DNA of 64,000 nucleotides from Bacillota bacterium (GCA_036782995.1 DAIPXZ010000001.1:1-64000), one strand, 5' to 3'; shown: positions 4,612 through 57,275, numbered from the stretch's first letter. Notes: a model not told the origin generated them from the letters alone. Program-made: numbers and translations.

Positions 4612-5721
4612 CTAACTGGTTCTGGCGACAAAGCCAAGGTGGTCTCCGAAAACAAAAGCTGCGGATACACCAAATGCGATACTGAGCAATTTACCTTTGT
4701 CAGACATTGATTTCACCATACTGAACATCGGAACGGAATTGGCTAAATTGGCTATCATTCCCGAGCAAGCGACATCGTCTACGCCAAGCTTTTTACCGGC
4801 TTTATTCAGAGGCTTCTTGAATGCCTTTGTTATCCATTTTGCCATTGGATAAGCACCCATCAAGATAATACCGATTTGACCACAAACCAATAAAGCCTCA
4901 TCCAAATTCGTCATTCCTGTACTCTCGTTGACGGTAGACATAACACCAAAAACAGGCAAGAATATTCCGGTTATCTGCTGAACCACCGCAATTGCGGTCA
5001 ACATTGTGCCGACAATGCAGACGCCGGTACCAAAAATGTTGAAGCCTTTTATCATTGCTGTTGGTATGAACCATAACCCAAGACAGAGCAAGGCAGCAAA
5101 GATTATTACCGGGATAAGATTAATCAATATTGTGACAAAACTAATCGTATACAAAGTGATATTCATGAGTAAGCCGCCTGCGATACAGCCGAAAGGAACA
5201 CCTACCAGGCCTGCCAAAACACCGGCTGCCAGATATGGCCTGTCCTTTTTCTCGAGAATGCCCAATGCGACAGGAATTGTAAAAGTGATTGTTTGCCCCA
5301 TAACCGTTCCGAGAATCAAGCCCGAAAACATGGTCATCGTTTCATTTTTCGCCATACTTTGCGCCAAAGCATATCCACCCATATCACTGGATAAAAGAGT
5401 CGTCGCAAACATGGAGGGATCGGCACCAACAAGTGTGAAAATCGGAGTAATTATTGGCCCTAACAGCATGGAAAAAATAGGTGCGGCGGCGTATATACCA
5501 ATAAGTGCAAGACCAATCGGCCCAATGGCATTAAATCCATTATCAAATTCTTGACCGTAGCCTCTCTTGTTTCCTCGTATTTTATCGATTGCACCGATAA
5601 GCAAGAAAACCATCATTATCAGCATAATAATGGAGTTGATTGAGATGTTTTCACCAAACAGCTTCAGAGAATCAATAAAATTGTTGTTTTTTATCGTGCC
5701 AACCAGTTCACTAAAATCCAT
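4612..5721 (-). CDS. eutH: ethanolamine utilization protein EutH-family permease
   Basis: Resembles Salmonella EutH by eye along its length (GADPSMFATTLLSSDMGGYALA, IPVALGILEKKDRPYLAAGVLAGLVGVPFGCIAGG, AFGVSAAFVFGDHLGF). I moved the start to ATG 5721 (MDFSELV), which is preceded by AGGAG. Confidence 0.9.
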   Translation of the reverse strand: MDFSELVGTIKNNNFIDSLKLFGENISINSIIMLIMMVFLLIGAIDKIRGNKRGYGQEFDNGFNAIGPIGLALIGIYAAAPIFSMLLGPIITPIFTLVGADPSMFATTLLSSDMGGYALAQSMAKNETMTMFSGLILGTVMGQTITFTIPVALGILEKKDRPYLAAGVLAGLVGVPFGCIAGGLLMNITLYTISFVTILINLIPVIIFAALLCLGLWFIPTAMIKGFNIFGTGVCIVGTMLTAIAVVQQITGIFLPVFGVMSTVNESTGMTNLDEALLVCGQIGIILMGAYPMAKWITKAFKKPLNKAGKKLGVDDVACSGMIANLANSVPMFSMVKSMSDKGKLLSIAFGVSAAFVFGDHLGFVARTS

Positions 5722-6051
5722 CTTGTCACTCCTATAATGCATATATTGTGCTGTAAATCTGTTATACAGATATTTATTCATTGAATAGTGAGTTTATGTA
5801 ATGAATGATTCTGATTGTTGCAGGAGTTGCACCGAGTTTGCACACAGACAGCTTTCGTCTGTTGATGCATGTAGAAAAATACGACCTTCAATGGTTAATG
5901 AATACGGAAAATATCGCGAGCTACTTTTCGTGCTCGGCATTGAATTTGTTAAGTACTTTTAATATATCATAATATAAATTATTCTACAAGGAATTTACTT
6001 TTGCGTTCTTCGCATTACTTCTCATTTGCTAAAAGAATTCTTCAACGCAAA

Positions 6052-8217
6052 TTAACTGTGCGACACATAGCCACCATACACATCATCCATGCTCACGGGC
6101 TCTCCCGTTTTGAGCAAATCCAGTAGCCATTGGCCGTCATCGCCTTCACTTAGAAGGAATCCGTAATAGGCAATATAGGGTGCGCGATAAATCAGATATT
6201 GTCCACAAGTGCCGACAAGCTCAAATGGCTCGGCAATGTAGGTCGGAATCGTTGCGTATGCGTCTTCGGTCGTAATCATTACGACTTCGCCTTGATAATC
6301 TGATGCATTGTAGTATCGTAAGGTGTCGCCCCATAGGGGAGCACCGGCAAAGCCATCATTTACCGTCCGATATGTACGAGTTTCGTCAATCACGCGCAAG
6401 TTGCGAGCAAGCACGAGGTTTTCATCACCGACCACATAGACCATCGGGGTATCATATTGGTCAACGATGTCAGCAAGAATCTCCAGCTCCTCTACGTTGG
6501 TGTGATTGCGGCAGAGAGAATAATAGGAAATGCCGTTCGAACAAATGATACCGAGTATGACGCACAATATGATGGTTTTAGAGAAGAGGCGGTCTTTCGG
6601 CAAGTCTTCGATGTATTGTCCGACAAGCAGGAGCATGCCCATGAAGATAAAAATCACGTAACGCGTCTCGAACACTTCCGACCCATATGTTGTATACGAA
6701 AAAAGTAAGATCGCTATATTGGAGAGAATGAGAATAATCATGGAAAAGAGTGGCGTATCGACATCTTCTGCTTTAAGGTGTTTCTTTGTCGCGATGATGC
6801 TTGCAACGAGAATGAATAGACCGACGGCAAAGAAAACACAATATGCGATTCCTTTCAGTGAAATAATCGATATGTCCGTAGTACTTGGGAACATGGATGT
6901 GATGTCAAAGTATCCGAATAGCAGACCTTTAGCATTGCTTACGACTTCGGTTTTGGCTATCCATGCGATACTGGTATCGCGACTTTCGACGTGAAAAAAG
7001 CGAGCGGCTATGACTTTGCCTACTACTATCATGATACCCGTAATGGCAATGAACCATGTTTCGCGACAGAATACGGATTTGATATCATTTTTAACGAATG
7101 CACGTATTACGATATAGAGTGCAAATGGCGCGACAGTCATGATGAGCATAAATAATCCCGTGGAAAGGCCTGTCAGAAACGAAAGAACAAGACAAATAGC
7201 TGCCCATGGGAGTATTTCACGCATTTTTGCTTTGCGCGCCAGACGGGTCACGACTAAGGCGAATGCCAAAAGGAGTATGACACGATAGCTGTACGAGGCC
7301 ATGAATCCATATACCATGGCAAAATAATTCAATGCATTGTTGGTGTCGAAGGTCGTAAAATAAGGCGTTATGATGAGCGCGATTGTAAGAAGACGTGAAG
7401 ATAGCTGCCACTTCATTTCGCGTGTGAGTCCGGCAACGGCGGCAACAATAATTCCGGTCGTTAAAATGTTGCATAGACCATATGCCGTGAATACGTCACC
7501 AATCGCTCCATAGACGAGCCATGCCATAACGACAGAAGAATCCATTCCGAGGCCGGTCTGATAGGACCAATCATTCGGGAAAAGAGTCTTTTGGTTCCAT
7601 AATTCCTTAACAAAGAGATAGCATGACGATGCATCGAAGCCCAAATGGTTTCGAAGCATGGTGAGATTTACGAATACAATGAGAGCGAGTTCGATTCCGA
7701 CGACGCATAGGAGTACGATGTCGATTGGTTTTAGCTTTTGACGCAGGGTTTGTTCTGCGGCTGTCGTCGCGTTTTCTTTGCGCTTAAATGCCCAGAATTT
7801 ATTGAGCAAGAAGTTCATCGGGATGGTAATCACGAGGTTAATCAACGGCGCAATAAGGTCGGAGATATGGAGACATTCGACCCACACGAACAAAAGCACT
7901 GTGCTGAGAATGAATGTGAAGCCATAGGACGTAAATGATTTGGCATACGCCGTGATGTGTTCTTTGAAGGTTTTCTTTTGGCCGTCTGAAAAGATGAATC
8001 GGCTGTTCCAAATATAGGCATTGGTGACGCTAATCACAAAGCCTAAGATATTGCCGATTTGGTAATGCCAGCCGAATGCGAGGACGCATAAATAGTAGAT
8101 GCCTTGTGAAATCAACGTATTCGAAACACCAACCAAACCGAACTTGATGAATTGCATCAAGGGCTTGATCTTTGGGTGGTTCATAATTTGCGATAACCAG
8201 TTTGTCATTTTACTCAT
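6052..8217 (-). CDS. GtrA-like domain fused to a large polytopic membrane protein (putative GT-C-type terminal glycosyltransferase)
   Basis: 721 aa. The N-terminal ~150 aa are GtrA-like (FIKFGLVGVSNTLISQGIYY...NFLLNKFWAFKRK). They are followed by many hydrophobic helices and a ~130-aa soluble C-terminus. The start overlaps the rfbH stop (ATGA at 8214-8217). Confidence 0.65.
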   Translation of the reverse strand: MSKMTNWLSQIMNHPKIKPLMQFIKFGLVGVSNTLISQGIYYLCVLAFGWHYQIGNILGFVISVTNAYIWNSRFIFSDGQKKTFKEHITAYAKSFTSYGFTFILSTVLLFVWVECLHISDLIAPLINLVITIPMNFLLNKFWAFKRKENATTAAEQTLRQKLKPIDIVLLCVVGIELALIVFVNLTMLRNHLGFDASSCYLFVKELWNQKTLFPNDWSYQTGLGMDSSVVMAWLVYGAIGDVFTAYGLCNILTTGIIVAAVAGLTREMKWQLSSRLLTIALIITPYFTTFDTNNALNYFAMVYGFMASYSYRVILLLAFALVVTRLARKAKMREILPWAAICLVLSFLTGLSTGLFMLIMTVAPFALYIVIRAFVKNDIKSVFCRETWFIAITGIMIVVGKVIAARFFHVESRDTSIAWIAKTEVVSNAKGLLFGYFDITSMFPSTTDISIISLKGIAYCVFFAVGLFILVASIIATKKHLKAEDVDTPLFSMIILILSNIAILLFSYTTYGSEVFETRYVIFIFMGMLLLVGQYIEDLPKDRLFSKTIILCVILGIICSNGISYYSLCRNHTNVEELEILADIVDQYDTPMVYVVGDENLVLARNLRVIDETRTYRTVNDGFAGAPLWGDTLRYYNASDYQGEVVMITTEDAYATIPTYIAEPFELVGTCGQYLIYRAPYIAYYGFLLSEGDDGQWLLDLLKTGEPVSMDDVYGGYVSHS

Positions 8218-9551
8218 GAAATGGCCTCAATAATGGTTTGCGCCATGTAATCAATCATGGCGTCCGTCATGCCCGGATAGACTCCGACCCAGAAGGTGTC
8301 ATTCATGATTTGGTCAGTGACAGAAAGGTCGCCGACGACGCGATAGCCTTCGCCGCTCTTTCTCATCTCGTCAAAGCAAGGGTGACGGGTGAGGTTGCCG
8401 GCAAACAGCATTCTTGTCTGTACGCCCTTCTTTTCTACGTATTGGACGACTTCATTTCTCGAAACGCCCGGTTTGCAAGTAATCAGGAATCCGAACCAGC
8501 TCGGGTCGGCGTTTTCAGCAGCAACCGGCAGAATGAGCTTATCTTCGTAAGGAAGGAGCGCCGCCTTTAGGCGTTTGAAGTTCTCTTTTCTCTTCTCGAC
8601 AAAGGTCGGGAATTTCTGAAGCTGTGCGCATCCGATTGCCGCCTGCATATCAGTGGCTTTGAGGTTATATCCAAAATGAGAATAGACATACTTGTGGTCG
8701 TAACCAAGCGGCAGCTCACCGTATTGCTTGTCAAAGCGATGGCCGCAAAGATTATCCATACCAGACGGGCATACGCAATCACGGCCCCAGTCACGCATGG
8801 AGCGGGCAATCTTATTGAGAAGCGGATCATTAGTGTATACGGCACCGCCCTCACCCATAGTCATGTGATGCGGCGGGTAGAAGCTCGATGTGCCGATATC
8901 ACCGATGGTTCCTGTGAAATATTCTTTTCCGTCGAGCGTGTACTTAGAGCCTAAGGCGTCGCAGTTGTCTTCGACGAGGAAGAGGTTATGCTTTACACAG
9001 AAAGCCTTGACGGAAGCAAGGTCAAACGGATTGCCGAGTGTGTGAGCAATCATGACGGCCTTTGTTTTCGGAGAAAGGGCCTTCTCGAGCATTTCAACAT
9101 CGATATTATATTGCGGAATGGTAAGGTCAACGAATACCGGAATTGCACCATATTGAATCATTGGTGTAACGGTTGTCGGGAAGCCGGCAGCCACTGTGAT
9201 TACTTCGTCACCGCGCTTTACAGCACGTTCGCCGAGAAGCGGCGAGGTCAAGGTCATGAATGCAATAAGGTTCGCAGAGGAACCGGAATTTACCAGCGAG
9301 CAGTACTTGATGCCAAGATAGTTGGCGAGTTTCTTTTCAAATTCATCGGTATAGCGACCGGATGTGAGCCAGAATTCGAGCGAAGAATCGACAAGATTGA
9401 GCATTTCGTCGCTGTTATATACTCGGGAAGCATACGGAATGCGGTTCCCCGGAGTAAAGGGCGGTTTTTGATTGTGATAAGTATCACAGTACTCCTTCAC
9501 CATCTCGAGAATGGATTCTTTTGCTTGTTGTTCTGACATGTTTTCAAACAT
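8214..9551 (-). CDS. rfbH: CDP-4-keto-6-deoxy-D-glucose 3-dehydrase (E1), RfbH/DdhC, DegT/DnrJ/EryC1 family
   Basis: 445 aa. IPYASRVYNSDEMLNLVDSSLEFWLTSGRYTDEFEKKLANYLG...SLVNSGSSANL...VEDNCDALGSKY is the RfbH pattern. Confidence 0.9.
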   Translation of the reverse strand: MFENMSEQQAKESILEMVKEYCDTYHNQKPPFTPGNRIPYASRVYNSDEMLNLVDSSLEFWLTSGRYTDEFEKKLANYLGIKYCSLVNSGSSANLIAFMTLTSPLLGERAVKRGDEVITVAAGFPTTVTPMIQYGAIPVFVDLTIPQYNIDVEMLEKALSPKTKAVMIAHTLGNPFDLASVKAFCVKHNLFLVEDNCDALGSKYTLDGKEYFTGTIGDIGTSSFYPPHHMTMGEGGAVYTNDPLLNKIARSMRDWGRDCVCPSGMDNLCGHRFDKQYGELPLGYDHKYVYSHFGYNLKATDMQAAIGCAQLQKFPTFVEKRKENFKRLKAALLPYEDKLILPVAAENADPSWFGFLITCKPGVSRNEVVQYVEKKGVQTRMLFAGNLTRHPCFDEMRKSGEGYRVVGDLSVTDQIMNDTFWVGVYPGMTDAMIDYMAQTIIEAIS

Positions 9552-10626
9552 GGTTATTCTCCTCCCAATCGGCGGTAAATGCCGAAATTTGTTGATTCAT
9601 TATTTCATTGACGGATTGACCGTCACGATAGACCTTTGCCCATTCGACAGAAGCCGATACAGCCTCGTTAATATGCCATGTTGGCTTCCAGCCGAAAGTC
9701 TTCTTAATCTTTGAGCAATCGAGCTTCAGGAAGTTCGCCTCATGCGGGCCGCCCACAAATTGGTTCTCCCATGTCATGCCCTCGCCCCACGCGTCGCAGA
9801 ACAGATTGACCAAATCGCCGGTTGTGACACAATCGCAATCGTCTGGTCCTACATTATAGTAGTCGGCAAAAGACTTATCTTCATACTGTTTCTTTGCAAT
9901 GAGCAAATAGGTAAAAAGCGGCTCGAGGACATGCTGATATGGCCTTGTCGAATGTGGATTACGCACGACGATGGCATGCTTTGCCAAGGCAGCGCGGATA
10001 GAGTCCGGGATGATGCGGTCGACGGCAAAATCACCGCCGCCAATGACATTACCTGCACGTGCCGTCGAAATCGCAACGTCACGATCGGCAAAAAAAGACA
10101 ATTTGTAGCTATGTGTGACGAGCTCCGAACAGGATTTACTGTTCGAATACGGATCAAATCCGTCGAGCGGGTCAATTTCACGATAGCCCCATTCCCATTC
10201 GTTGTTATGGTAGACCTTATCCGTCGTAACATTCAAAAAGGACTGCACCGTATCGCTCATACGAACACATTCCAAAATATTGACCGTGCCCATGACGTTC
10301 ACTTCGTATGTATATGCGGGGCGAACGTAAGAGTCACGAACAATCGGCTGTGCCGCCATGTGAATGACGATTTCCGGTTTTGCCGCCTGAAAAGCCTTTG
10401 AAAGAGCATCTGTATCGCGGATATCTCCGATGACAGAAGTCATTTTTTCATCAAGCTCGAGCATGCTAAATAAAGACGGCTCCGTCGGCGGATTCAGTGA
10501 ATATCCGGTCAATTCGGCGCCTGCGTCGACCAATATCTTCGAGAGCCACGCGCCCTTAAATCCGGTGTGTCCAGTCAGGAACACTCTTTTCCCTCTGTAA
10601 AAATCCAGCATTACCATGTTTTCCAT
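9544..10626 (-). CDS. rfbG: CDP-glucose 4,6-dehydratase
   Basis: FYRGKRVFLTGHTGFKGAWLSKIL...NVTTDKVY... The start is ambiguous (ATG 10626 or 10617) and either choice overlaps the rfbF 3' end. Confidence 0.9.
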   Translation of the reverse strand: MENMVMLDFYRGKRVFLTGHTGFKGAWLSKILVDAGAELTGYSLNPPTEPSLFSMLELDEKMTSVIGDIRDTDALSKAFQAAKPEIVIHMAAQPIVRDSYVRPAYTYEVNVMGTVNILECVRMSDTVQSFLNVTTDKVYHNNEWEWGYREIDPLDGFDPYSNSKSCSELVTHSYKLSFFADRDVAISTARAGNVIGGGDFAVDRIIPDSIRAALAKHAIVVRNPHSTRPYQHVLEPLFTYLLIAKKQYEDKSFADYYNVGPDDCDCVTTGDLVNLFCDAWGEGMTWENQFVGGPHEANFLKLDCSKIKKTFGWKPTWHINEAVSASVEWAKVYRDGQSVNEIMNQQISAFTADWEENNHV

Positions 10627-11384
10627 GGGGCATTTCCGGATGCCCACATTTCCTCCAGTTCCATTTTATCGCGCTGTGTATCCATGCACTTCCAGAAGCC
10701 TTTATGCTTAAAGGCGTCCAATTGACCTTCCTTGGCCAGCTTTTCGAGCGGAGCTTTCTCGAAAACCGTCTTGTCGCCTTCGATATAATCGAAAACCTTC
10801 GGCTCGAGAATCATGTAGCCGCCGTTGATTAAGCTGCCATCCGCTTCGGATTTCTCACGGAATGATTGAATACATGCATTGCTCGCGATATCCAAAACAC
10901 CAAAACGCTGGCCGACGCTAACCGCCGTCAACGTAGCAATATGATTGTTTTTCTTATGAAATGCGATTAATTTTTCGATATTTACATCGGAAACACCGTC
11001 ACCATATGTCAAAAGAAACGGCTCTTCGCCGATATAGCGAGAGATTCTCTTGATTCGACCGCCGGTCATAGTATTGAGGCCGGTGTCCACGACGGTTACG
11101 CGCCACGGTTCGGCAAAGTTCGAATGGATTTCCATTTTATTCTCTGCGGTAAAATCGAAAGTGATATCCGAACGGTGGAGATAATAGTCAGCGAAAAACT
11201 CCTTAATCACGTGCTGTTTGTATCCACAGCAAATGATAAATTCATTAATGCCGTAATTCGATATGGTCTTCATGACATGCCATAACATCGGCATGCCTCC
11301 GATTTCGATCATAGGCTTCGGCTTCAAGTGGCTTTCTTCGGAGATACGTGTTCCGAACCCGCCTGCTAATATGACTGCCTTCAT
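10611..11384 (-). CDS. rfbF: glucose-1-phosphate cytidylyltransferase
   Basis: MKAVILAGGFGTRISEESHLKPKPMIEIGGMPMLWHVMK... gives 257 aa from ATG 11384, which is preceded by GAGGTGAAGG. The upstream 27 codons of the track ORF are not homologous. Confidence 0.9.
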   Translation of the reverse strand: MKAVILAGGFGTRISEESHLKPKPMIEIGGMPMLWHVMKTISNYGINEFIICCGYKQHVIKEFFADYYLHRSDITFDFTAENKMEIHSNFAEPWRVTVVDTGLNTMTGGRIKRISRYIGEEPFLLTYGDGVSDVNIEKLIAFHKKNNHIATLTAVSVGQRFGVLDIASNACIQSFREKSEADGSLINGGYMILEPKVFDYIEGDKTVFEKAPLEKLAKEGQLDAFKHKGFWKCMDTQRDKMELEEMWASGNAPWKTW

Positions 11385-11492
11385 GTCCTTCACCTCGTTC
11401 TTTTCGCACTTCACAGCTATGAAAATGCAAGTGCTTCTATTCGTAAAATCCCGAAAATCGGGCATTTACCACCAGTGTGAACCATCTCACGT

Positions 11493-11522
11493 ATTATACG
11501 AGCATATGGTTTCGATTGTCAA
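11493..11522 (-). promoter_or_regulatory. near-consensus sigma-A-type promoter TTGACA-18-TATAAT overlapping the GT2 stop codon
   Basis: Minus strand reads ...GAAAATTGACAatcgaaaccatatgctcgTATAATacg. The -35 is at 11517-11522 and the -10 at 11493-11498. A small hairpin CCCGA-ttt-TCGGG plus ATTTT follows in the 134-nt gap before rfbF. Confidence 0.45.
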
Positions 11523-12691
11523 TTTTCCCCGACAGAATCTTTACTTTCCTTGCTGTCCTTGTCTTTCTTGTCGGCAGATTTTTTCGTTGTTTTCTTTGTG
11601 CTCTTTGGCTTCTCGGGTTTGGATTGCTCCTCTTCTTTATCCGTCTTCACGGCCTTGGTTTTTCTGACCTTGGTCGGTTCTTTTGCCAAAAGGTTGGTTT
11701 TCAATGGTGCCACGATTGCTTCTGCTTTCGCTTCAATCTCCGCAGACACGGTTTGCTTATCAAAGTTGATTCGTTCTTCTTCGATGACAAGCGGACGTTT
11801 CATCATACGGTTATTAATGGCAAGAATGTACTCGCCGAGGAAGCCGATGAAAAAGATTTGAACAGAGCCTAAGATAATAACGGCCAATAGAATCGGCAGG
11901 TTACCCGCCGGGAATGAATTCCACATACAAAGCTTCAAAATGAAGTATACAAGACCGGCTACGAGGCTCAAGGCGGCACATAGTGCACCGGCGATGGTCG
12001 CGATGCGAAGACCGACCTTGGTATACGATGTTATCGAGAGCATAGCCGCATCATAGAGTCGATAGAAGTTATTAGAGCTCTTTCCGCGTTCGCGTTTCGG
12101 CTGATCATAAGGAATGTCCTTGCGTTTCCAGCCCATCTCGGCAACAATACCGCGCAAGAACGGGGTTGGGTCATCGAGGCGACGCAGCACATCAATAAAC
12201 TCCTTATCGTAAAGGCCGGAGCCTGTGAAATGTTCAATTTGTTCGACGTCAGAAAGCTTCTTGATTAGCTTATAGTAGCAGGTGCGAAGGAAACGGAGAA
12301 TTTTGTTTTCGTGACTCGTCGTCTTAATTCCGATGACGATTTTATAGCCATTTTCCCACTCGCGCACGTATTTAACGATATTTTCAATCGGGTCTTGGAA
12401 ATCGCAAACCATAGTAACCGTGCAATCACCTGTCGTTTGCAAAAGGCCGTAGTATGGCGAATTGAATTGTCCGAAGTTGCGGACGTTAAAGATTGTCTTG
12501 ATATGTGGATTTTTATGGCAGATTTCACGAAGTAAAGTGCGTGAGCTATCTTTCGAATCGTTATCAATAAAGATGAGCTCCCAATCGTAGTTTGCCAGCT
12601 CGTTGGAAAAAAGATTCGTTATCGCTTCACTCATCGGAATGATATTTAATTCCTCGTTATAACACGGAATTAAAATGCTGATTTTCTTCAT
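11519..12691 (-). CDS. family-2 glycosyltransferase, polyprenyl-phosphate glycosyltransferase type (GtrB/CsbB/ArnC-like)
   Basis: MKKISILIPCYNEELNI...IFIDNDSKDSS...DFQDP. There are two C-terminal TM helices (LRIATIAGALCAALSLVAGLVYFI, LPILLAVIILGSVQIFFIGFLGEYI), then a ~85-aa Lys/Glu-rich tail. Confidence 0.85.
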   Translation of the reverse strand: MKKISILIPCYNEELNIIPMSEAITNLFSNELANYDWELIFIDNDSKDSSRTLLREICHKNPHIKTIFNVRNFGQFNSPYYGLLQTTGDCTVTMVCDFQDPIENIVKYVREWENGYKIVIGIKTTSHENKILRFLRTCYYKLIKKLSDVEQIEHFTGSGLYDKEFIDVLRRLDDPTPFLRGIVAEMGWKRKDIPYDQPKRERGKSSNNFYRLYDAAMLSITSYTKVGLRIATIAGALCAALSLVAGLVYFILKLCMWNSFPAGNLPILLAVIILGSVQIFFIGFLGEYILAINNRMMKRPLVIEEERINFDKQTVSAEIEAKAEAIVAPLKTNLLAKEPTKVRKTKAVKTDKEEEQSKPEKPKSTKKTTKKSADKKDKDSKESKDSVGEN

Positions 12692-12701
12692 AACTGTATC
12701 C

Positions 12702-13619
12702 TCACTTCTCTGTCTTAATCCACTCTAGCGTTTGTTTGATACCTTCTTCAAAGGATGTTTGCGGTGTGAAACCAGTATCGGCAGTCAGCGTATCAATATC
12801 GGCACACAGGTACATGACTTGTTTGTCATAATAGGGCACTTCGCCAAAACCAATGTCCGCTTGTGGTGCGGTCAAATCCCGTATTGTCGTGATATAGTCT
12901 CGAAGCGGCTGCACTCGCCCTCCACCCAATGCATAAACGGCGCCGTCCGGAGCCTTTTCGCAAGCAAGCATAAAGGCACGTGCCGCGTCATCGCAGTATA
13001 AATAGTCCCACATCTGCTCGCCCTTGGTGTATGTCGGGCGTTCCCCTGCGAGAAGCTGACGGATACCAGACATCACCATCGTATGCTCACCGTCATGTGG
13101 CCCGTATACGCTCAATATACGCATCCAGATATGACGAATATGCAAAGCATTACATTCCACTCGTGTCATCTGTCCTGCGCACAGTTTCGCAATACCATAT
13201 CCCGTCTCCGGAAAAGTCGGCGTGTCAGGGGCAAGCTTCGTGCCATCCGGTACTCGACCGTACTCCGCCTGACTTCCCGCGCCAATAAAAACTTCACATC
13301 CGATACGTGAAGCCAATCGAACCGCTTCGACTGCCGCACGCGCATTATCGAGCTGCAGGGGCATATCATTGCGTGCGTCACCATGTGTGCCGCCCCATGC
13401 CAAATGGAAGAAAGCATCGTATTTTTTGTCCGTATGAAAAGACGAAAATGCGCTCATTTCCACCGCCTCGGTGGTCACCAAGGGATGTTTCGGAATGCCG
13501 GCATTGCGGGTAGAAGATGGGTTCGTTAAAACCAATACCTCAACCTCATTTCGAATCAGTTCGCGAATAATCGCGAGCCCAATCATGCCTGTCGCTCCGG
13601 TAATAACCGCTCTTTTCAT
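12702..13619 (-). CDS. NAD-dependent epimerase/dehydratase-family SDR (candidate sugar 4-ketoreductase)
   Basis: MKRAVITGATGMIGLAIIREL has the Rossmann GxxGxxG. A YxxxK-type motif sits in GYGIAKLCAG. 305 aa. Confidence 0.8.
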   Translation of the reverse strand: MKRAVITGATGMIGLAIIRELIRNEVEVLVLTNPSSTRNAGIPKHPLVTTEAVEMSAFSSFHTDKKYDAFFHLAWGGTHGDARNDMPLQLDNARAAVEAVRLASRIGCEVFIGAGSQAEYGRVPDGTKLAPDTPTFPETGYGIAKLCAGQMTRVECNALHIRHIWMRILSVYGPHDGEHTMVMSGIRQLLAGERPTYTKGEQMWDYLYCDDAARAFMLACEKAPDGAVYALGGGRVQPLRDYITTIRDLTAPQADIGFGEVPYYDKQVMYLCADIDTLTADTGFTPQTSFEEGIKQTLEWIKTEK

Positions 13620-13622
13620 GAA

Positions 13623-15455
13623 TCAGTTTGTCTCCAATCGTTTTGCTGCTTCATATTCTTCTCGCTCGAGGAACGGGAACATGTCATCGAGTGATGGTGA
13701 TACGATTTTGCCGTCCGGAAGCACCTTCGAAGAGAGCTTCGGCGAGAAATTCTGCTTCGGGTCAACAACGACTTCACAGAAGATTGGGCCTTCTGTTGAC
13801 AAGAGCTTCTCGGTAATCTCCTTTACGTCGTCCAAATTGTCGAGACGGACAAACGGAATATCATAGGCCGCGGCGAGCTTTTCGGGTGACGGGAACGTAA
13901 GCCCCGAGCCCACACCAATGCCCAAAAGCGGCGGTTGGAAGAAGTTCGTCTGTGTTTGACGGATGGAATGATATCCCTCGTTATTTAAGTAGACGATTTT
14001 TATGTTCATTTTGTTGCATCCAACGGTCGCCAATTCCTGCAAATTCATTTGGAAGCTGCCGTCTCCATCGATGCAAATGACGCGCTTGCCTTTATTCGCC
14101 ACAGCGGCGCCAATGGCGGCCGGAAAACCGTAACCCATGGCGGCGCAGCCAGAGTTCGTGTAAAGGCGTTGATGTTCTTTTACTACGGCGGATTGGAAGG
14201 TCATGACGCAGGCGCTGCCATTACCGCAAATCACGGTCTCATCGTCGGACCAGAGCTTACTGAATTCCGTGACAAAAGCGTATGGATTCATCGGTTGTTT
14301 AACCGCATAGTATTCCGGCATGGTGGCAGGATATTGAAGGAAAACTTTTCTTGCGTGGTCGAGCCAAGCCTTATGATCAGCGTTCTTCGCCGCGCCGATT
14401 GCATAGGTATTCGTCGATTTTTCAAGCGCACGAAGCAGTGAAGGAATCACATCGCCGCAATTTGCATGAATCGGCATATCTGGTGTGACGGTCGGTTTCT
14501 TGAGCTCGTTCTCGTCGATATCAACGACAATTTTGAAGGCATCCTTCGCAAAATCACGATAGTTATAGCTGATGATTCGGATGTTCATACGGCATCCAAG
14601 AACAAGTAACAAATCGCAGCCCTGAACGACAAAGTTTCCACCACGAACACCAATGGTACCCGGACGGCCGCAAAAGCAAGGATTTGCATCTGCTATCAAA
14701 TCGTTGGAGTTCCATGCAGTGACAACCGGAATGCTAAGCTGCGAAACCAGTTTGCTTAATTCCTCGCGCATCCCGGAGAGGTGAACTCCCGTGCCAACGA
14801 GGATACACGGCTTCTTGGCCATAGCAATTTTGGAAAGAATCTCAGGTGTGAGGTTCTCATCATATGTTGGATTGAGTGGTGTATCCAGTTCGTCAGGAGA
14901 GAACCCTGCGAGCTCATCGGTTTCAACAATCGCCGCTTGGATATCGAGTGGGATATCCAGCCATACCGGACCCGGGCGGCCGTTTGTAGCAAGATAGAAT
15001 GCTTTTTCCAAATGATAACGAATGGACGTCGGTTCGGTAATCATAACCGCGTATTTCGTCATATTCTTTACGGAGTCGACAATATTGAATTCTTGGTCGC
15101 CGAGCTGACGAAGCGGAACCGGAGTCGACCATATTGTCGTTTCCCTTTTCACTTGGCCGGAAAGGACAAACATCGGGATAGAATCAAGCCATCCGCCCAT
15201 GACGCCCGTGATGGCGTTCGTCCCGCCGGGGCCGCTCGTTACGCAAAGCGAAGCCATTTTTCCAGTCATACGTGCATAGCTTTCCGCCGCAATGGCCGAT
15301 GCCTGCTCATGGTGGTTATAGATGGTATGAAGTCCGGGATGATGGCCAAGCGCATCGTTCAGGTGCATGGCACCGCCGCCTGTGACGGTGAAGTTGTCTT
15401 CGATTCCTTGCGCAACAAGAAAATCCGCAATGAGATGGGCAATTTTTTGTTTCAT
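13623..15455 (-). CDS. thiamine-diphosphate-dependent enzyme, acetolactate-synthase-like (YerE-like candidate)
   Basis: 610 aa. HHEQASAIAAESYARMTGKMASLCVTSGPGGTNAITGV and GDGSFQMNLQELATV...NNEGY (ThDP-binding GDG...NN motif). Confidence 0.85.
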   Translation of the reverse strand: MKQKIAHLIADFLVAQGIEDNFTVTGGGAMHLNDALGHHPGLHTIYNHHEQASAIAAESYARMTGKMASLCVTSGPGGTNAITGVMGGWLDSIPMFVLSGQVKRETTIWSTPVPLRQLGDQEFNIVDSVKNMTKYAVMITEPTSIRYHLEKAFYLATNGRPGPVWLDIPLDIQAAIVETDELAGFSPDELDTPLNPTYDENLTPEILSKIAMAKKPCILVGTGVHLSGMREELSKLVSQLSIPVVTAWNSNDLIADANPCFCGRPGTIGVRGGNFVVQGCDLLLVLGCRMNIRIISYNYRDFAKDAFKIVVDIDENELKKPTVTPDMPIHANCGDVIPSLLRALEKSTNTYAIGAAKNADHKAWLDHARKVFLQYPATMPEYYAVKQPMNPYAFVTEFSKLWSDDETVICGNGSACVMTFQSAVVKEHQRLYTNSGCAAMGYGFPAAIGAAVANKGKRVICIDGDGSFQMNLQELATVGCNKMNIKIVYLNNEGYHSIRQTQTNFFQPPLLGIGVGSGLTFPSPEKLAAAYDIPFVRLDNLDDVKEITEKLLSTEGPIFCEVVVDPKQNFSPKLSSKVLPDGKIVSPSLDDMFPFLEREEYEAAKRLETN

Positions 15456-15492
15456 AAGTCTTCTCTCCAGTGTATGAAATGCGTATTGACGC

Positions 15493-17103
15493 TTATTCGA
15501 CGAGGTCTTTCTCGTAATATGATTCGGTCACAAAAGTAATGTCCAGACCGTTTCTTACTCGAGCGAGACTCTTCTTCGTATCTTCATTAATCTCGATGGC
15601 CTTCGTCTTACTGAAGCTGTGTGCCATGTTGGGATTGACATAATCTGGTGTTTCCGCCGTCGTATATCCATCAAAGCCCGCAAGTGCGATGCTGTTTACA
15701 CCGATTTTTGACGAAAGCTTCAAAAGCATAATCAGCGGATTATCTACAATCATGGCATCTTCGTCAAGAAGACTGCTGTAATTTAAGGTGTAATCGAAAT
15801 CACCAAGTGCACGTGTGACATTACTCGTCGCAATCGTGCGAATCGAATCCGGAATCATGGAGAGCTGTGATGACAATTGAACATAGCGTTTCGCATTGCT
15901 CATGACGATATAGTCGACACAATAGCTCTTCGGGAGAAAGTTCACGGCAATTACTACCGGGTGATTGGCCTCGATATAGGCATTAACCCGATCTTTATCA
16001 TCAATGACACGATTGCCCGGCCCCAAGAGCAGGATATTCTTTCCGGAAAGCTTGCGTGTCAGGCGTTCGATGGCCTTGCCGTCGTCGCATTCATTTTTTT
16101 GGTAATTAACATAAAGCTCCTCGGCGTATTTCTGATCGTAAAGAAGCTTCTTGTCAGGCGTAATGGAGTCCAGGATTGCATTGATGTCCTTCACGGATAG
16201 CTTCTTTTTGTTTGTTAAATAGGAAACGTAATTCGGGTGGCAGTCATTCGATGCCGAGAGGAAAAACTTAAAGCTGTATCCCCACGGTGTCTTCTTATAG
16301 AAATCAAGCATCGTTACGTCGATGGCCTCGAGTAACTGACTCTTCACGTATTTCTTGCCGCAATAATCATTCATGTAGGTAGCAAGGAGCTCAATTGGCG
16401 CATTGCCGGCGCTCTTGCCCATGCCATAGAGAGTGCCGTCAATTAACAGAGTACGGTCGACTTCATTTTGAAGAAGCTCAATGCAATTTGCAAAAGCGAG
16501 CTGAAAATTGTTGTGGGAGTGATATCCGATGGCTACCGACGGCTTCAATTTCGCATCTGCCATCTGGAAATAATGTTGGAGCTTCTCTTTATGGAGAAGG
16601 CCGTATGTGTCTACCAATGAAAAAGCAAATGGTTCGAGGTCATTTACGAGCCCCATCAGTTCATCAAAATCTTCATCACTATATGCCGTGATGGACACCG
16701 CTTGCGAAAAAACTTGGTATCCCAACGCCTTAAGCTGCTTACAGTATGCAATCGCATCGTGCATGATTTCTTTCTTAAAAATCACGCGAATACCATCAAG
16801 GAAGCAGTCTTTGCAAGGCATAATATTCGAAATATCACATGTGCCGTAGTCAATCATACCGACAACCATCGTGTTGCCCTTATTCAAATGACCATAGATT
16901 TTATTCACCGACAAGGTGTCCGGCATAATGCTACGGTTAATATCGAATTCACGACGGTCATCAAGGAAACCGACTTCGATGACCTCAAGATTGGCTCCAA
17001 TGATACGCTCGAAAATATTGACCATATTGTTGTTGCCAAATGCCCAATCGTTGACGTAACCGCCATCACGCAACGTGCAATCAAGAAGTATTTTATTGCC
17101 CAT
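15493..17103 (-). CDS. DRE-TIM (HMGL-like) aldolase domain fused to a C-terminal DUF115/MAF-like domain
   Basis: 536 aa. The N-terminal LDCTLRDGGYVNDWAFG...GYHSHNNFQLAF is the HMGL-like metallolyase pattern. The C-terminal ~230 aa (ILLLGPGNRV...VMSNAKRY...IALAGFDGY) resemble DUF115-type domains. That second call is from memory and needs an HMM check. Confidence 0.6.
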   Translation of the reverse strand: MGNKILLDCTLRDGGYVNDWAFGNNNMVNIFERIIGANLEVIEVGFLDDRREFDINRSIMPDTLSVNKIYGHLNKGNTMVVGMIDYGTCDISNIMPCKDCFLDGIRVIFKKEIMHDAIAYCKQLKALGYQVFSQAVSITAYSDEDFDELMGLVNDLEPFAFSLVDTYGLLHKEKLQHYFQMADAKLKPSVAIGYHSHNNFQLAFANCIELLQNEVDRTLLIDGTLYGMGKSAGNAPIELLATYMNDYCGKKYVKSQLLEAIDVTMLDFYKKTPWGYSFKFFLSASNDCHPNYVSYLTNKKKLSVKDINAILDSITPDKKLLYDQKYAEELYVNYQKNECDDGKAIERLTRKLSGKNILLLGPGNRVIDDKDRVNAYIEANHPVVIAVNFLPKSYCVDYIVMSNAKRYVQLSSQLSMIPDSIRTIATSNVTRALGDFDYTLNYSSLLDEDAMIVDNPLIMLLKLSSKIGVNSIALAGFDGYTTAETPDYVNPNMAHSFSKTKAIEINEDTKKSLARVRNGLDITFVTESYYEKDLVE

Positions 17104-17289: not shown

Positions 17290-18270
17290 TCACTTCTTCG
17301 TTTTCTCCTGCTTGGCTTCAGGGTTTCGTTCTCCTTGTAGGAGTTTTGTCGTTGAAAATACTCGAACCGCGTCCCAAAGCTCTCTTCGCCTTGTCGATTG
17401 TAAATGTGGGAATGCACGCAGGAAACGCTTCTGTTCTTTTCCGAGTGCGGCGTATAGTGTGCGCAACCGGCCCTCAAGGGATGCTCTCTGTTCTTCGTCG
17501 TCTGATTTATTCCGGATTTCATCAAGATACTCCTTGGCTTCTTCAATTCGAAGCTTCGCCCCATCGATTCGTTGCCTTGTTCCTTCGGAAAGAGCGTCTT
17601 TCTGATCCTTCATCGCCGCCACAAGAACATCTTGCTTCTCCTTCACGGTTTCCTTCGTCTTTTCCGCCTTGGCAAGTACGGTCAATGTGCGATCAGCAAC
17701 ACCCGCTCCGATTTTGTCGGAAACGTTGTGTAGTGCCGTCGCCACTTCCTGAATTTGCGCAATACGACGATTCATCTTGACGACTGCCAATACTGTCGCG
17801 ATGAGGTCTGCGAGGAAAACGGCACCAAAACCGCTGTTAATAATCCATAGCACGTATTCCGGAAGCGGGTTCACAGCTGCATTGATAATCGGATGTACGA
17901 CGTCGACAACGAGGACACATGCGAGACCCCAAAGAATGGAAAACGAAAGGCAAATATATCCGCCAAGATTGAACTTTTTATCGGAGTAATCCCACCATGT
18001 TTGGTGAAACAGCTTCTTCATTAGGAACCCCCCAACGAGCTCGACCGACGTGGTTAATAAACAAGATACGAGGAAAAGTAATGCCAGATTATCCTTGAAA
18101 GGATTAATTACAAGAAGAACAAGATTGACACCAAATCCGTAAATCGGGCAAACCGGTCCGAACAAGAATCCACGGTTCACGAATTTGCCTTCTTCCAAAG
18201 CCGCATAAGCAACCTCGGTGCACCAGCCGATAAAAGCGTAAACAAAAAAGAATAGTACAAACTTCGCCAT
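17290..18270 (-). CDS. membrane protein (CmpB-like / putative ABC-transporter type IV family) with a charged coiled-coil C-terminus
   Basis: The N-terminus MAKFVLFFFVYAFIGWCTEVAY...GPVCPIYGFG has 4-5 TM helices. The C-terminal ~150 aa are rich in E/K/R heptad-like sequence. The family assignment is from memory. Confidence 0.5.
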   Translation of the reverse strand: MAKFVLFFFVYAFIGWCTEVAYAALEEGKFVNRGFLFGPVCPIYGFGVNLVLLVINPFKDNLALLFLVSCLLTTSVELVGGFLMKKLFHQTWWDYSDKKFNLGGYICLSFSILWGLACVLVVDVVHPIINAAVNPLPEYVLWIINSGFGAVFLADLIATVLAVVKMNRRIAQIQEVATALHNVSDKIGAGVADRTLTVLAKAEKTKETVKEKQDVLVAAMKDQKDALSEGTRQRIDGAKLRIEEAKEYLDEIRNKSDDEEQRASLEGRLRTLYAALGKEQKRFLRAFPHLQSTRRRELWDAVRVFSTTKLLQGERNPEAKQEKTKK

Positions 18271-38093: not shown

Positions 38094-38828
38094 ATGAAAC
38101 ATGGGAAATCCAGTCTTATACGATTAGTAAGCATCGTGGTCGCCACGTTGGTGCTGGTTACCACTATTCTTGCTATTGGGAGACATTGCATTGAATCATA
38201 TGCAAATCGTGTACCCGCCCTCACCGATGAAGCATTAGCAACAATTGATTTTTTAAAAGCCAAGAACCTCATGATTGTCGCACATCCGGATGACGAAACG
38301 CTCTGGGGTGGCGCACATCTCTATTCTCATGATTATTTGGTCGTTTGCCTGACTGGCGGACGAAACTCCGAGCGCGCAAAAGAATTTGCTTCAGTGATGG
38401 AGGCCGCAGATTGCCAATTCTTGCAATTGTCTTACCCCGATAAAGTATGCGGCTTACGAAGTAATTGGAAAGCCGTTAGGGAGCAAATGGAAGCGGATAT
38501 CCAGAAAATCGTTGAAGCCAATGATTGGGCACTCATCGTGACGCATAATGCGAAGGGTGAATATGGCCACCAGCACCACATCATGACCCACGATTCTGTA
38601 TGCAAAGTGTATTACGCGTCCGATTCGATGGCAGATCTTTATGTTTTCGGTGATTATTATTCGGCAAAAAAACTGGAAACGGCCGATAATCTGCCACAAG
38701 AAATCGATGATAGTCGTCTGTGTTTTAAGGAAGACCTTCTTTCCCATTACAGCTCGCAGGACAATACCGTGAAAAAGCTTTCGCATATGAATGTGTATGA
38801 GGATTGGACACTCATCGAGGACAGATAG
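38094..38828 (+). CDS. PIG-L/LmbE-family deacetylase with an N-terminal signal-anchor helix
   Basis: MKHGKSSLIRLVSIVVATLVLVTTILAI (positive N-terminus plus a TM helix), then MIVAHPDDETLWGG and HNAKGEYGHQHH, the PIG-L motifs. Confidence 0.85.
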   Translation: MKHGKSSLIRLVSIVVATLVLVTTILAIGRHCIESYANRVPALTDEALATIDFLKAKNLMIVAHPDDETLWGGAHLYSHDYLVVCLTGGRNSERAKEFASVMEAADCQFLQLSYPDKVCGLRSNWKAVREQMEADIQKIVEANDWALIVTHNAKGEYGHQHHIMTHDSVCKVYYASDSMADLYVFGDYYSAKKLETADNLPQEIDDSRLCFKEDLLSHYSSQDNTVKKLSHMNVYEDWTLIEDR

Positions 38829-50534: not shown

Positions 50535-51678
50535 ACGATTGTACCTCCTTGTACTTCTCATCGACTCGATTCATTAATTCGAGTTCATCAAGGATTTCCC
50601 CTTGATATGGGTACGTATTCCTCATGCTCTCGAATTGTTCACGTATGTTTTGGGCGTCATTCGTATTATTGTCCTCGAGTAACGCCTTCGCATATTGATA
50701 GCGCAAAACGGTAGGATTTTCCTTCATCTTCTGAATGAAGTCCATTGTTGTTTTTGATAAAAAAGAGTTCCGTTCATCTTTGGGCTGTTCGGTAAGCAAT
50801 GAAAGGTAGGTTAACTCCATATCGATAAAGGCACCTATTATTCCGCTTCTTGGTATCTCCGTATGATTATGAAGCCACTTTAGTTTTTCATAAGCTTCAT
50901 CTAATCGACCATTGATGATGTAATAGCAACAACTGTTTACGTATTGCGTGGTAATTATTGCTGTCGTCATCTCTTTTTCCGTAGGAAAAAAGTAATTGGC
51001 TTCGTCTATATCTTTCATGCGAGCATCTTCAGCGTATTCCGCAAGTGTAATCATCTGTGTGTAGAATACACGAATCATCAATGGGTTACGTTTACAGGCC
51101 AAGATATTCGCTCCGTCGTTATTCAACATTTTGCCGGAAAACGGAATGCCATTTATTACGGCAGGAATCAACGCCATTGCCGCAGCAGTGATAAAAAACG
51201 CACGGCTAATCGGTGCAATCGGCAAGAGACAGAGTCCGCCAAATATACCGGCACACAACATGTTCATGAGCACTCCGCCGAGTTGATAAAGATTAATCGG
51301 ATTTTTTCCGTTCTCTTGATATAGCGGTGGTTTCATTAAGCATTGACCCGCCGTTCCGGTAAGCTTATATTTCTTGATCGCGAGCTTTCCATTCTTCTTT
51401 ATCCAAACAGTATTGTATACTCGGAAGCTTATAAAAGAATATCCGGAAATCAAGCCCGCAAACAAGTGTCCTAGTTCATGGAGAACAAGTTGAATATTAT
51501 ACAAAACAATGCTGACCATACAAAAGACAAGCGTAACCAAGAAACCATGTGTTCCAATAGAATTCGGATATGCCCCCTTTATGATCGCATTGATTATCAT
51601 CATCGAGCCAAAGTAGATGATTACCAATATTGTGCATATAAGAAAACAATTCACTGCATTGATTTTCTTTGATTCCAT
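50527..51678 (-). CDS. M50/site-2-protease-like polytopic membrane protein with a helical soluble C-terminal domain
   Basis: HELGH at aa 67-71 sits at the end of a TM helix, and a later NNDGANIL resembles the second M50 motif. It has 4-5 TM helices and then ~170 aa of helical, TPR-like sequence. Confidence 0.55.
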   Translation of the reverse strand: MESKKINAVNCFLICTILVIIYFGSMMIINAIIKGAYPNSIGTHGFLVTLVFCMVSIVLYNIQLVLHELGHLFAGLISGYSFISFRVYNTVWIKKNGKLAIKKYKLTGTAGQCLMKPPLYQENGKNPINLYQLGGVLMNMLCAGIFGGLCLLPIAPISRAFFITAAAMALIPAVINGIPFSGKMLNNDGANILACKRNPLMIRVFYTQMITLAEYAEDARMKDIDEANYFFPTEKEMTTAIITTQYVNSCCYYIINGRLDEAYEKLKWLHNHTEIPRSGIIGAFIDMELTYLSLLTEQPKDERNSFLSKTTMDFIQKMKENPTVLRYQYAKALLEDNNTNDAQNIREQFESMRNTYPYQGEILDELELMNRVDEKYKEVQSYA

Positions 51679-51714
51679 AAATACTCCTTATTGCACAAGT
51701 CTCGAACTTGTAGC

Positions 51715-57183: not shown

Positions 57184-57275
57184 GTTGGGTTTATCCCTCC
57201 TGTCGCGAAAGCGTGATCGCCTTACTGAGGCCTTCGCTAACGATATCTCTACTAGAGCAATTATAGTCAAACTAT

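Follow-up and report, generated by a model that had tools for sequence, protein, structure and literature searches.

A GtrA/GT-C fusion protein and a GtrB-type glycosyltransferase in a CDP-branched-sugar operon of a Bacillota bacterium: a candidate three-component glycosylation system

The DNA analysed here is a stretch of 64,000 nucleotides from a Bacillota bacterium (GCA_036782995.1 DAIPXZ010000001.1:1-64000), referred to below as the window. It contains an operon of eight co-directional minus-strand genes (6052-17103), flanked by eutH (4612-5781) and by a gene for a CmpB-like membrane protein (17290-18270). We hold with high confidence that this operon combines a GtrB-type glycosyltransferase of family 2 (GT2) with a protein in which GtrA is fused to a GT-C domain, inside a gene set for a branched sugar activated by cytidine diphosphate (CDP). 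The complete mechanism, in which the GT2 would load the CDP-activated sugar onto undecaprenyl phosphate (Und-P) for export and transfer, is our favoured reading, with moderate confidence. Novelty would lie in the class of donor, in the GT-C family and in the fused protein. The first-pass annotation had taken the interval 6052-12691 as the functional unit. That interval holds only the downstream five genes, and the unit extends upstream to 17103, which adds three co-directional genes for a short-chain dehydrogenase/reductase (SDR), a YerE-like enzyme dependent on thiamine diphosphate (ThDP) and an HMGL-like aldolase (Table 1). The intergenic spacing within the cluster ranges from -37 to +37 bp, except for one gap of 134 bp between the GT2 gene and rfbF.

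The fusion protein is 721 aa long. Pfam GtrA_DPMS_TM (PF04138) matched aa 25-144 with 82 bits (cutoff 26.1; E-value 3.8e-23), and the full-length model placed the GtrA helices at aa 18-47, 52-75, 84-115 and 123-143, with predicted local distance difference test (pLDDT) values of 75-94. After a linker, about 11-12 more hydrophobic helices (aa 165-563) are followed by a soluble tail. The proposed fusion of an N-terminal GtrA-like part to a polytopic-plus-soluble domain was thus borne out, as was the translational coupling of the gene to rfbH, whose stop codon overlaps the start codon of the fusion gene as ATGA at 8214-8217. Four full-length alleles of 721 aa were present in independent assemblies. 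They differ by 1-6 conservative substitutions, none of which lies in the linker. An assembly or frameshift artefact as the source of the fusion is ruled out by these four independent alleles. The fusion is real, and it was seen in one lineage only. The topology would also allow it: the four transmembrane (TM) helices of GtrA should leave the C-terminus in the cytoplasm, where the GT-C domain starts.

The GtrA domain is 56-61% identical to stand-alone GtrA proteins over 95-100% of its own length, and its closest 120 relatives are all stand-alone proteins of 124-206 aa. In the GT-C family described below, none of the 149 other representatives among the best 150 of 532 carries a GtrA domain. A custom GtrA hidden Markov model (HMM) found no second GtrA gene in the 64-kb window, so the fused domain is the only one. 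These three results agree with the earlier view that a GtrA/GT-C fusion is unusual. GtrA fusions to other partners occur elsewhere, in both orders: SDR-GtrA (P0002), GT87-GtrA (P0003), polytopic protein-GtrA (P0004 and P0005) and GtrA-DUF6044 (P0006). The fusion event is rare but recurrent. The only solved structure matching the window GtrA domain was the Pyrococcus furiosus dolichol-phosphate mannose synthase (DPMS; 5mlz; E-value 0.0018), a GT2 with a GtrA-like TM domain. There, too, a GtrA-like domain is covalently joined to a component of its pathway, whereas the partner in the window is an extracytoplasmic GT-C.

The remainder of the protein (aa 150-721) gave no Pfam match at E<=0.01, and no Pfam family was common to its 75 aligned relatives. 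The GT-C domain likewise had no NCBIfam match and no PDB match by sequence or by profile, and no significant profile match to the named GT-C families (YfhO PF09586, GtrII PF14264, GT87 PF09594, ArnT/PMT-type models). The family HMM did not match the GtrII, GT87, DUF2142 and YfhO proteins of the window and the related loci. In word-index searches, whether started from the full protein or from the family profile, words from TM helices dominated, and only GtrA-domain matches or the query came back. It took an exhaustive HMMER run against 1.84 billion cluster representatives to reveal the family: 532 relatives scored E<=1e-3, of which 150 reached E<=1e-30. In the 150 best of the 532, identity was typically 23-35% over residues ~10-530. 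The named members that were looked up are all annotated as 'hypothetical protein' and come from Lachnospiraceae, Oscillospiraceae, Eubacteriaceae and unclassified Bacillota.

The AlphaFold model of the GT-C domain, built with the 75 relatives as alignment, had a pLDDT of 91.5 and a pTM of 0.91. In the structural comparison, the best match was ArnT (score 20.3; 429 residues superposed at 3.7 A), followed by Pmt4 (18.7), AglB (18.1), ALG12 (18.0), STT3B (17.6), Pmt2 (17.4), AftA (15.4), AftD (15.1) and PglB (14.7). All of the first 20 matches belong to the GT-C superfamily. Foldseek returned 12 significant matches, to ArnT, PglB, STT3 and AftA, with a TM-score of 0.55-0.58 for ArnT. A C-terminal domain lacking GT-C similarity is ruled out by this structural comparison. 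The model and fold matches support the claim that a candidate flippase and a GT-C-type transferase form one polypeptide. The first-pass annotation had suggested comparing aa 150-721 with YfhO, ArnT, PMT and GtrC: the GT-C fold was recovered, and no sequence match to any of these four was. By these comparisons the domain is the founder of an unnamed family, beside which GT136 is set by description only.

GT-C enzymes carry catalytic acidic residues in the first outside loop after TM1. In the window protein, the model puts D195 (7633-7635) and D226 (7540-7542) in this loop, between TM1 and TM2. Across the 75 family members, D195 is invariant and D226 is kept in at least 90%; both are candidate catalytic residues. 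E517 (at least 90%) and the invariant R519-Y520 form the motif E517-x-R519-Y520 (6658-6669) at the opening of a later helix, where they may contact the phosphate or the donor. This motif recalls the Arg-Tyr pair of GT136, which has been proposed to touch the lipid phosphate and the sugar. The C-terminal domain (aa 571-721) carries the family motifs RNLRVxD and WGD and is a candidate acceptor-binding module. Most relatives have an extra beta-rich C-terminal module of ~130 aa, which the window protein lacks. The extra N-terminal regions of the longer members P0067, P0089 and P0093 contained no Pfam domain.

The GT2 was described at the outset as a GtrB/CsbB-type enzyme with two C-terminal TM helices, and Pfam, alignment and hydropathy all agree with this. 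Glycos_transf_2 was found at aa 5-136. Residues 1-306 aligned with GtrB sll0501 (5eke; aa 3-304, 3e-37, 132 bits) and with ArnC (7e-28, 101 bits), both TM helices included, and the hydropathy profile placed these helices at aa 233-251 and 267-285. The best NCBIfam match was PgfS (170 bits, under the cutoff). The protein also has a tail of ~85 aa (aa 305-390; 11519-11777, minus strand) that is K/E-rich and of low complexity; it is absent from the 316-355-aa orthologues in five related loci (L014, L016, L018, L019 and L021). Together with the GtrA domain and a GT-C domain that shows the superfamily fold and acids in the expected loop, this GT2 points to a three-component Gtr-type system.

Two motifs of the GT2 are variant: IDNDS (12554-12568, minus strand) and VCDFQDP (12389-12409, minus strand). 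In all seven GT2s linked to deoxysugar genes, the first Asp of the DxD motif is replaced (VCD in the window, CCD in L018, AAD in L016, ASD in L019, CAD in L014, FGD in L011 and MGD in L004), and DDGS has become D-N/D-x-S. GtrB, ArnC and two unrelated GT2s keep DAD/DDD and D-G/N-S. The altered motifs may be a signature of another nucleotide, that is, of a donor not activated by uridine diphosphate (UDP). Pfam and NCBIfam searches found no other glycosyltransferase in the operon able to consume a CDP-sugar.

The enzymes for the CDP-sugar itself were assigned by matches above the cutoffs of their models. RfbF matched TIGR02623 with 397 bits (cutoff 300); the match begins at residue 28 of a long open reading frame (ORF) that is open to 11465, and gene callers set the start at the ATG at 11384, for a product of 257 aa. 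RfbG matched TIGR02622 with 440 bits (cutoff 278). For RfbH, NF011936 gave 718 bits (cutoff 423), and the comparison with 3bcx, the E1 structure from Yersinia, gave 530 bits (2.8e-158). The active-site HH pair, which stands where Lys is usual, and the Fe-S cysteines are both conserved relative to 3bcx; with these scores and residues we firmly call RfbH a true E1. The cytidylyltransferase, the 4,6-dehydratase and the E1 3-dehydrase of the CDP-3,6-dideoxyhexose pathway are thus all present.

The upstream genes bear on the nature of the sugar. The ThDP enzyme aligned with PDB entry 5ahk, which we take to be PpYerE, with 216 bits. Its best solved relative was 8rph (1.6e-108, 367 bits), compared with at most 242 bits for acetohydroxyacid synthases (AHAS; plant AHAS 242). 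8RPH is JanthE, a YerE-like enzyme (PMC12188165, PMC12247030). By this similarity, we propose that the ThDP enzyme adds an acyl branch to C-4 of CDP-4-keto-3,6-dideoxyglucose. The SDR gene lies 3 bp downstream of the ThDP gene and, by its position, is a candidate YerF/ErwF-type reductase of the branch carbonyl. The aldolase gene lies 37 bp upstream of the ThDP gene. Its product matched Pfam HMGL-like at aa 5-246 (1.6e-21), with the NCBIfam 4-hydroxy-2-oxovalerate aldolase models below cutoff; orthologues have 536 aa in L018 (10630-12240; 671 bits) and 524 aa in L021 (36% identity). The remaining ~290 aa (aa 247-536; 15493-16365, minus strand) had no Pfam match, and the long form is still kept in L018 and L021.

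For sugars with an acyl branch at C-4 (erwiniose, caryophyllose and gastriose are examples), the genes required are those for an aldolase of the BphI/HMGL type, a YerE-like ThDP enzyme, a reductase using NAD(P)H and the making of CDP-4-keto-3,6-dideoxyglucose (PMC9306805), and the acyl donor in that scheme is the aldolase product, not pyruvate (PMC9306805). The gene scheme is also given in PMC12247030. By analogy with the ErwI/ErwE scheme (PMC9306805), the window aldolase may provide the ThDP enzyme with its donor, an extended 4-hydroxy-2-oxo acid. A YerE-like carboligase adjoins a reductase gene in the window, with an aldolase as for long branches, and the predicted functions are exactly the set published for C-4 acyl-branched 3,6-dideoxyhexoses. 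The first-pass annotation had derived the lipid-linked sugar from the CDP-dideoxy pathway. RfbF, RfbG and RfbH support that origin; a plain dideoxyhexose is not what the gene content suggests, given the yerE/yerF-like and aldolase genes immediately upstream. A 3,6-dideoxyhexose with an acyl branch at C-4, of the yersiniose/erwiniose type, is the probable sugar.

The ATGA overlap, from which the CDP feed had been deduced, is by itself weak evidence, and comparative genomics argues for that feed much more strongly. The rfbF-rfbG-rfbH-gtrA block occurs with a close GT2 orthologue in four other loci (L014, L016, L019 and L021). The GT2 orthologues scored 481 bits in L018, 432 in L016, 431 in L019 and 429 in L014, and the L021 orthologue is 82% identical. 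In L014, L016/L017 and L019, gtrA follows rfbF-rfbG-rfbH and overlaps rfbH; a YerE-like gene comes next, and a GT2 gene of 316-320 aa lies further on. An SDR orthologue directly follows the YerE-like gene in L016 and L019, and L014 has an acetyltransferase and two aminotransferase genes there. The polytopic partners in these three loci are Glucos_trans_II (GtrII), GT87 and unnamed proteins of 604 and 685 aa, none of which belongs to the GT-C family of the window. This recurrence, and the operon holding no other glycosyltransferase, support in silico a donor derived from the CDP pathway.

L018 has a GtrA gene, the 536-aa aldolase, a YerE-like gene, the GT2 and a GtrII-type GT-C. It lacks rfbFGH and instead has a gene resembling dehydroquinate (DHQ) synthase, of the sugar-phosphate cyclase type, at 12902-13957. 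This hints that YerE-like branching and Und-P loading may be applied there to another keto-sugar or to a cyclitol scaffold.

All eight functions are encoded in L021, a locus of a related genome: the Band_7 neighbours of the two loci are 90% identical, and both have an Mbeg1-like gene. In L021, GtrA (212 aa, after rfbH) and the GT-C (588 aa, in opposite orientation) are separate proteins, and the SDR orthologue sits upstream of the GT2 gene rather than after the YerE-like gene. This GT-C (P0020) is the closest relative of the window GT-C domain. Between the two loci, identity is 85% for RfbH, 82% for GT2, 80% for RfbF, 79% for RfbG and 66% for SDR, and falls to 48% for the YerE-like enzyme, 36% for the aldolase, 34% for GtrA and 33% for GT-C. 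The GT2 has been conserved in step with the CDP-hexose enzymes, and the branch-determining and transfer modules have diverged.

The stand-alone members of the GT-C family also lie among glycosylation genes. A search for loci with a 7-sequence family alignment yielded 3 genome loci. A second glycosylation component was found near the stand-alone member in all eight loci considered, with only a shorter GT2 without TM helices in L009. L004 and L011 have a GtrB-like GT2 with two TM helices (283 and 341 bits to the window GT2) and a nucleoside diphosphate (NDP)-hexose 2,3-dehydratase. L006 has a partial GtrB-like GT2, an NDP-hexose 2,3-dehydratase and an ABC-2 polysaccharide exporter, and L005 a partial GtrB-like GT2. 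L007 and L012 have a UbiA-type synthase and GtrA, in L007 also a HAD phosphatase, and L013 has an SMR/EamA candidate flippase and a HAD gene. Judged by their genes, all of these contexts are of lipid-linked extracytoplasmic glycosylation, with donors that would often be unusual sugars. The L007 (1-11007) and L012 (3394-13743) regions hold two GT-C-family paralogues or two GtrA genes, together with UbiA/HAD/GLF, radical-SAM, ATP-grasp and acyltransferase genes. They appear to be large surface-glycan modification islands of uncultured Clostridia.

Several points weigh against the proposed mechanism. Everything beyond the architecture is inferred from the metagenome-assembled genome of an uncultured Firmicute of the gut type. 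We know of no GtrB-family enzyme with demonstrated use of a CDP-sugar. The classical electron-transfer partner of E1 is E3 (AscD/RfbI/DdhD), a [2Fe-2S] flavoprotein reductase. Pfam found no E3 gene in the operon nor in ~40 of the larger window ORFs, a scan that covered part of the ORFs, and none was seen in the related rfbH operons L014, L016, L019 and L021. The 3-deoxygenation step therefore needs another electron donor: E1 may be reduced by a general ferredoxin or flavodoxin system, or E3 may be encoded elsewhere. The full-length AF2 model had a pLDDT below 50 at aa 171-244, probably from a multiple sequence alignment mixing stand-alone GtrA and GT-C sequences, and it was not used for domain packing. 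GtrA proteins are thought to act as dimers (PMC8035078), so the fusion would probably have to dimerise. Finally, flippase activity has not been directly shown for any GtrA member in published work, and some authors hold a scaffold view.

On that scaffold view, the GtrA domain would recruit or stabilise the GT-C domain, and possibly the GT2, in the membrane, and the Und-P-sugar would cross by way of the GT-C domain or another transporter. A hub role has been proposed for the Pseudomonas GtrA-like protein 6247, which is partly replaceable by ArnE/F. The very different fusion partners of GtrA (an SDR in P0002, GT87 in P0003, polytopic proteins in P0004-6 and a GT2 in 5mlz) would also fit a generic anchor. 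However, the position of gtrA directly after rfbH is conserved, GtrA is the only candidate transporter in the operon, and family GT-Cs without a nearby GtrA have SMR/EamA-type candidates, as expected if a flippase is needed. We consider the scaffold role unlikely; it would alter one step only and is compatible with the overall pathway. By analogy, the GtrA domain is retained as a candidate lipid-sugar flippase.

Rather improbable, in our opinion, is that the GT2, GtrA and GT-C form an ordinary system fed by UDP-Glc, UDP-GlcNAc or UDP-Gal, with the CDP-sugar used by a Leloir glycosyltransferase elsewhere. As far as is known, characterised GtrB-type enzymes all use UDP-sugars or sugars activated by guanosine diphosphate (GDP) (PMC8035078), and gene adjacency is no proof of specificity. 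A possible internal promoter (11522-11493) also parts the GT2 gene from rfbFGH and the fusion gene. This perfect TTGACA-18-TATAAT is the sole 12/12 match in the region and lies in the 134 bp that separate the GT2 stop from the rfbF start; the promoter-like matches in the region overall do not exceed the shuffled expectation. As a lead only, the cluster may form two transcripts, aldolase-YerE-SDR-GT2 and rfbFGH-fusion. Against UDP feeding, five independent loci pair the GT2 subclade with rfbFGH, YerE-like genes or both, with changing GT-C partners, and the L021 GT2 has kept pace with RfbF/G/H in conservation, far ahead of the other cluster genes. Beyond these, the closest GT2 relatives adjoin NDP-hexose 2,3-dehydratase genes, again a non-UDP pathway. 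The altered DxD and DDGS motifs of the subclade and the lack of another operon glycosyltransferase for the CDP-sugar point the same way.

We rate it as very improbable that the 572-aa domain, instead of transferring one sugar from an Und-P-monosaccharide, works on an oligosaccharide linked to undecaprenyl pyrophosphate as a GT-C-like polymerase, ligase or oligosaccharyltransferase: PglB, AglB and STT3 are among the structural matches and P0022 adjoins an ABC-2 polysaccharide exporter, but the best match by both methods is ArnT, a user of Und-P-monosaccharide, the operon has no phosphoglycosyl (priming) transferase, Wzx or Wzy gene, and the co-encoded GT2 is of the Und-P-monosaccharide synthase type.

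We believe that a CDP-fed pathway with a flipping GtrA domain would proceed as follows. RfbF, RfbG and RfbH are predicted, with good support from their sequences, to convert glucose-1-phosphate to CDP-4-keto-3,6-dideoxy-D-glucose. From homology and precedent, the HMGL-like aldolase would make a 4-hydroxy-2-oxo acid, the YerE-like enzyme would decarboxylate it and add the acyl unit at C-4 of the keto-sugar, and the SDR would reduce the branch carbonyl to give a CDP-linked sugar of the yersiniose/erwiniose type. The GT2 would move this sugar from CDP to Und-P at the inner face of the membrane, and the GtrA domain would carry the Und-P-sugar to the outer leaflet. The attached GT-C domain would pass the sugar, via D195/D226, to an envelope acceptor, which may be a teichoic acid, a secondary wall polysaccharide or a surface protein. 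As to the origin of the fusion, the likeliest course is that gtrA lost its stop codon after a GT-C gene had settled immediately behind it; the fused protein would deliver the flipped donor straight to the transferase.

Read from its genes, the system would work like the Gtr, CsbB-GtcA-YfhO and Arn systems. Gtr-type systems comprise GtrA-GtrB-GtrC of phage, Shigella and Salmonella and CsbB(GtlA)-GtcA-YfhO(GtlB) of Bacillus, Listeria and Staphylococcus. They draw on pools of UDP-Glc, UDP-GlcNAc and UDP-Gal, whereas the window system is embedded in a CDP-sugar operon and has GtrA and GT-C in one polypeptide. Its GT-C has no sequence match to YfhO or GtrC (Glucos_trans_II), and its GT2 lacks the first Asp of DxD. 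That the established systems use UDP-sugars, as the first-pass annotation stated, is known; as a general statement it is too narrow, as GDP-Man and donors derived from phosphoribosyl pyrophosphate (PRPP) also occur. In ArnC-ArnE/F-ArnT, which makes Und-P-L-Ara4N and modifies lipid A, the flippase is of the SMR type and the donor is a UDP-sugar, in contrast to the GtrA type and the predicted CDP donor of the window. The window GT-C is only ~10-11% identical to ArnT, and lipid A is not its acceptor, the host being of the Gram-positive type.

Pentofuranose systems, with a polyprenyl-phosphoribose synthase, a MATE flippase and GT136 (PMC11127046), are a precedent for non-UDP donors and for unnamed GT-C proteins founding new families. 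They share the gene logic of L007/L012 (UbiA-type synthase, HAD phosphatase, GtrA), and differ from the window in their PRPP-derived donor and other flippase class, where the window has a GT2 and a nucleotide-sugar. The yersiniose/erwiniose/caryophyllose pathways (DdhA-C with YerE/ErwE and YerF/ErwF, with or without ErwI; PMC9306805) use the same set of activated-sugar enzymes. They are known in Proteobacteria and mycobacteria, with cytoplasmic addition by GT-A enzymes assumed, whereas the only transferases in the window operon are the GtrB-type GT2 and the GT-C. The window operon also differs in lacking E3 and the acetaldehyde dehydrogenase partner of the aldolase, and in an aldolase of 536 aa with an unannotated C-terminal half. 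In the searchable literature, neither a fusion of GtrA with a GT-C nor a three-component system fed by a CDP-sugar was found to be reported. The nearest published idea, offered as speculation, is a polyprenyl-linked sugar made by a DPM-synthase-like glycosyltransferase beside a cytidylyltransferase gene in lipooligosaccharide (LOS) synthesis of M. kansasii.

Elsewhere in the window, a gene for a PIG-L family deacetylase (38094-38828, plus strand) is followed 4 bp on by one for an 864-aa YfhO-family GT-C (38832-41426; PF09586, 4.6e-60). This GT-C is the second in the window and a conventional one, and a search of its surroundings found neither a GT2 nor a GtrA gene belonging to it. The pair suggests modification with a deacetylated amino sugar. 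An ORF of 1337 aa (53257-57270, minus strand) with a TTG start had no Pfam match, and two more matchless minus-strand ORFs lie just downstream (50527-53187).

Table 1. Positions of the operon genes, the fusion-protein domains and the promoter-like element, counted from the first letter of the window.
Feature	Coordinates	Strand	Basis
HMGL-like (pyruvate) aldolase, 536 aa	15493..17103	-	Pfam HMGL-like
YerE-like ThDP-dependent carboligase, 610 aa	13623..15455	-	three TPP_enzyme domains; PDB match 8rph
Extended SDR, 305 aa, candidate YerF/ErwF-type reductase	12702..13619	-	Pfam Epimerase 4.3e-36
GtrB/ArnC-type GT2, 390 aa	11519..12691	-	Pfam Glycos_transf_2 and GtrB/ArnC alignment
Sigma-70 consensus TTGACA-18-TATAAT, possible internal promoter	11493..11522	-	sequence match 12/12
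rfbF, glucose-1-phosphate cytidylyltransferase, 257 aa	10611..11384	-	TIGR02623
rfbG, CDP-glucose 4,6-dehydratase	9544..10647	-	TIGR02622
rfbH (E1), CDP-6-deoxy-4-keto-glucose 3-dehydrase	8214..9551	-	NF011936; 3bcx
GtrA/GT-C fusion protein, 721 aa	6052..8217	-	Pfam PF04138 and predicted structure
GtrA domain, aa 25-144, candidate Und-P-sugar flippase	7786..8145	-	PF04138 3.8e-23
Basic cytoplasmic linker, aa 145-163, KRKENATTAAEQTLRQKLK	7729..7785	-	sequence and low pLDDT
GT-C fold membrane domain, aa 164-570	6508..7728	-	model and fold comparison
Extracytoplasmic alpha/beta C-terminal domain, aa 571-721, candidate acceptor-binding module	6055..6507	-	model

A broader reading, to which we give even chances, is that the window system represents an undescribed three-component class in Clostridia-type Firmicutes, in which a GtrB subclade without the first Asp of DxD loads Und-P with uncommon sugars, deoxy or branched, from CDP donors, and interchangeable GT-C modules set them on the cell surface. 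Its relatives beside 2,3-dehydratase genes would probably use other NDP donors, of the dTDP (deoxythymidine diphosphate) type. Within such a class, the new GT-C family of ~530 representatives would be one module, and the window protein a Rosetta-stone fusion for the physical coupling of GtrA and GT-C.

If the proposed mechanism is correct, the finding would be comparable in kind to the 2024 work on pentofuranoses and GT136. The repertoire of lipid-linked extracytoplasmic donors, which comprises UDP-sugars, GDP-Man and, since 2024, PRPP-derived pentofuranoses, would gain CDP-activated C-branched 3,6-dideoxy sugars, together with a recognisable GT2 subclade with an altered nucleotide/metal motif. 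A sizeable GT-C family without a Pfam or NCBIfam model, common in gut and environmental Lachnospiraceae, Oscillospiraceae and Eubacteriaceae, would be defined. The natural GtrA-GT-C fusion would argue that GtrA acts beside the GT-C; being one polypeptide, it could serve structural studies and reconstitution, and it would make the long-standing question of whether GtrA is a flippase or a scaffold more tractable. Sugars of the yersiniose/erwiniose type, so far known from the lipopolysaccharide of Gram-negative bacteria and from mycobacterial glycolipids, would also decorate the cell walls of Firmicutes.

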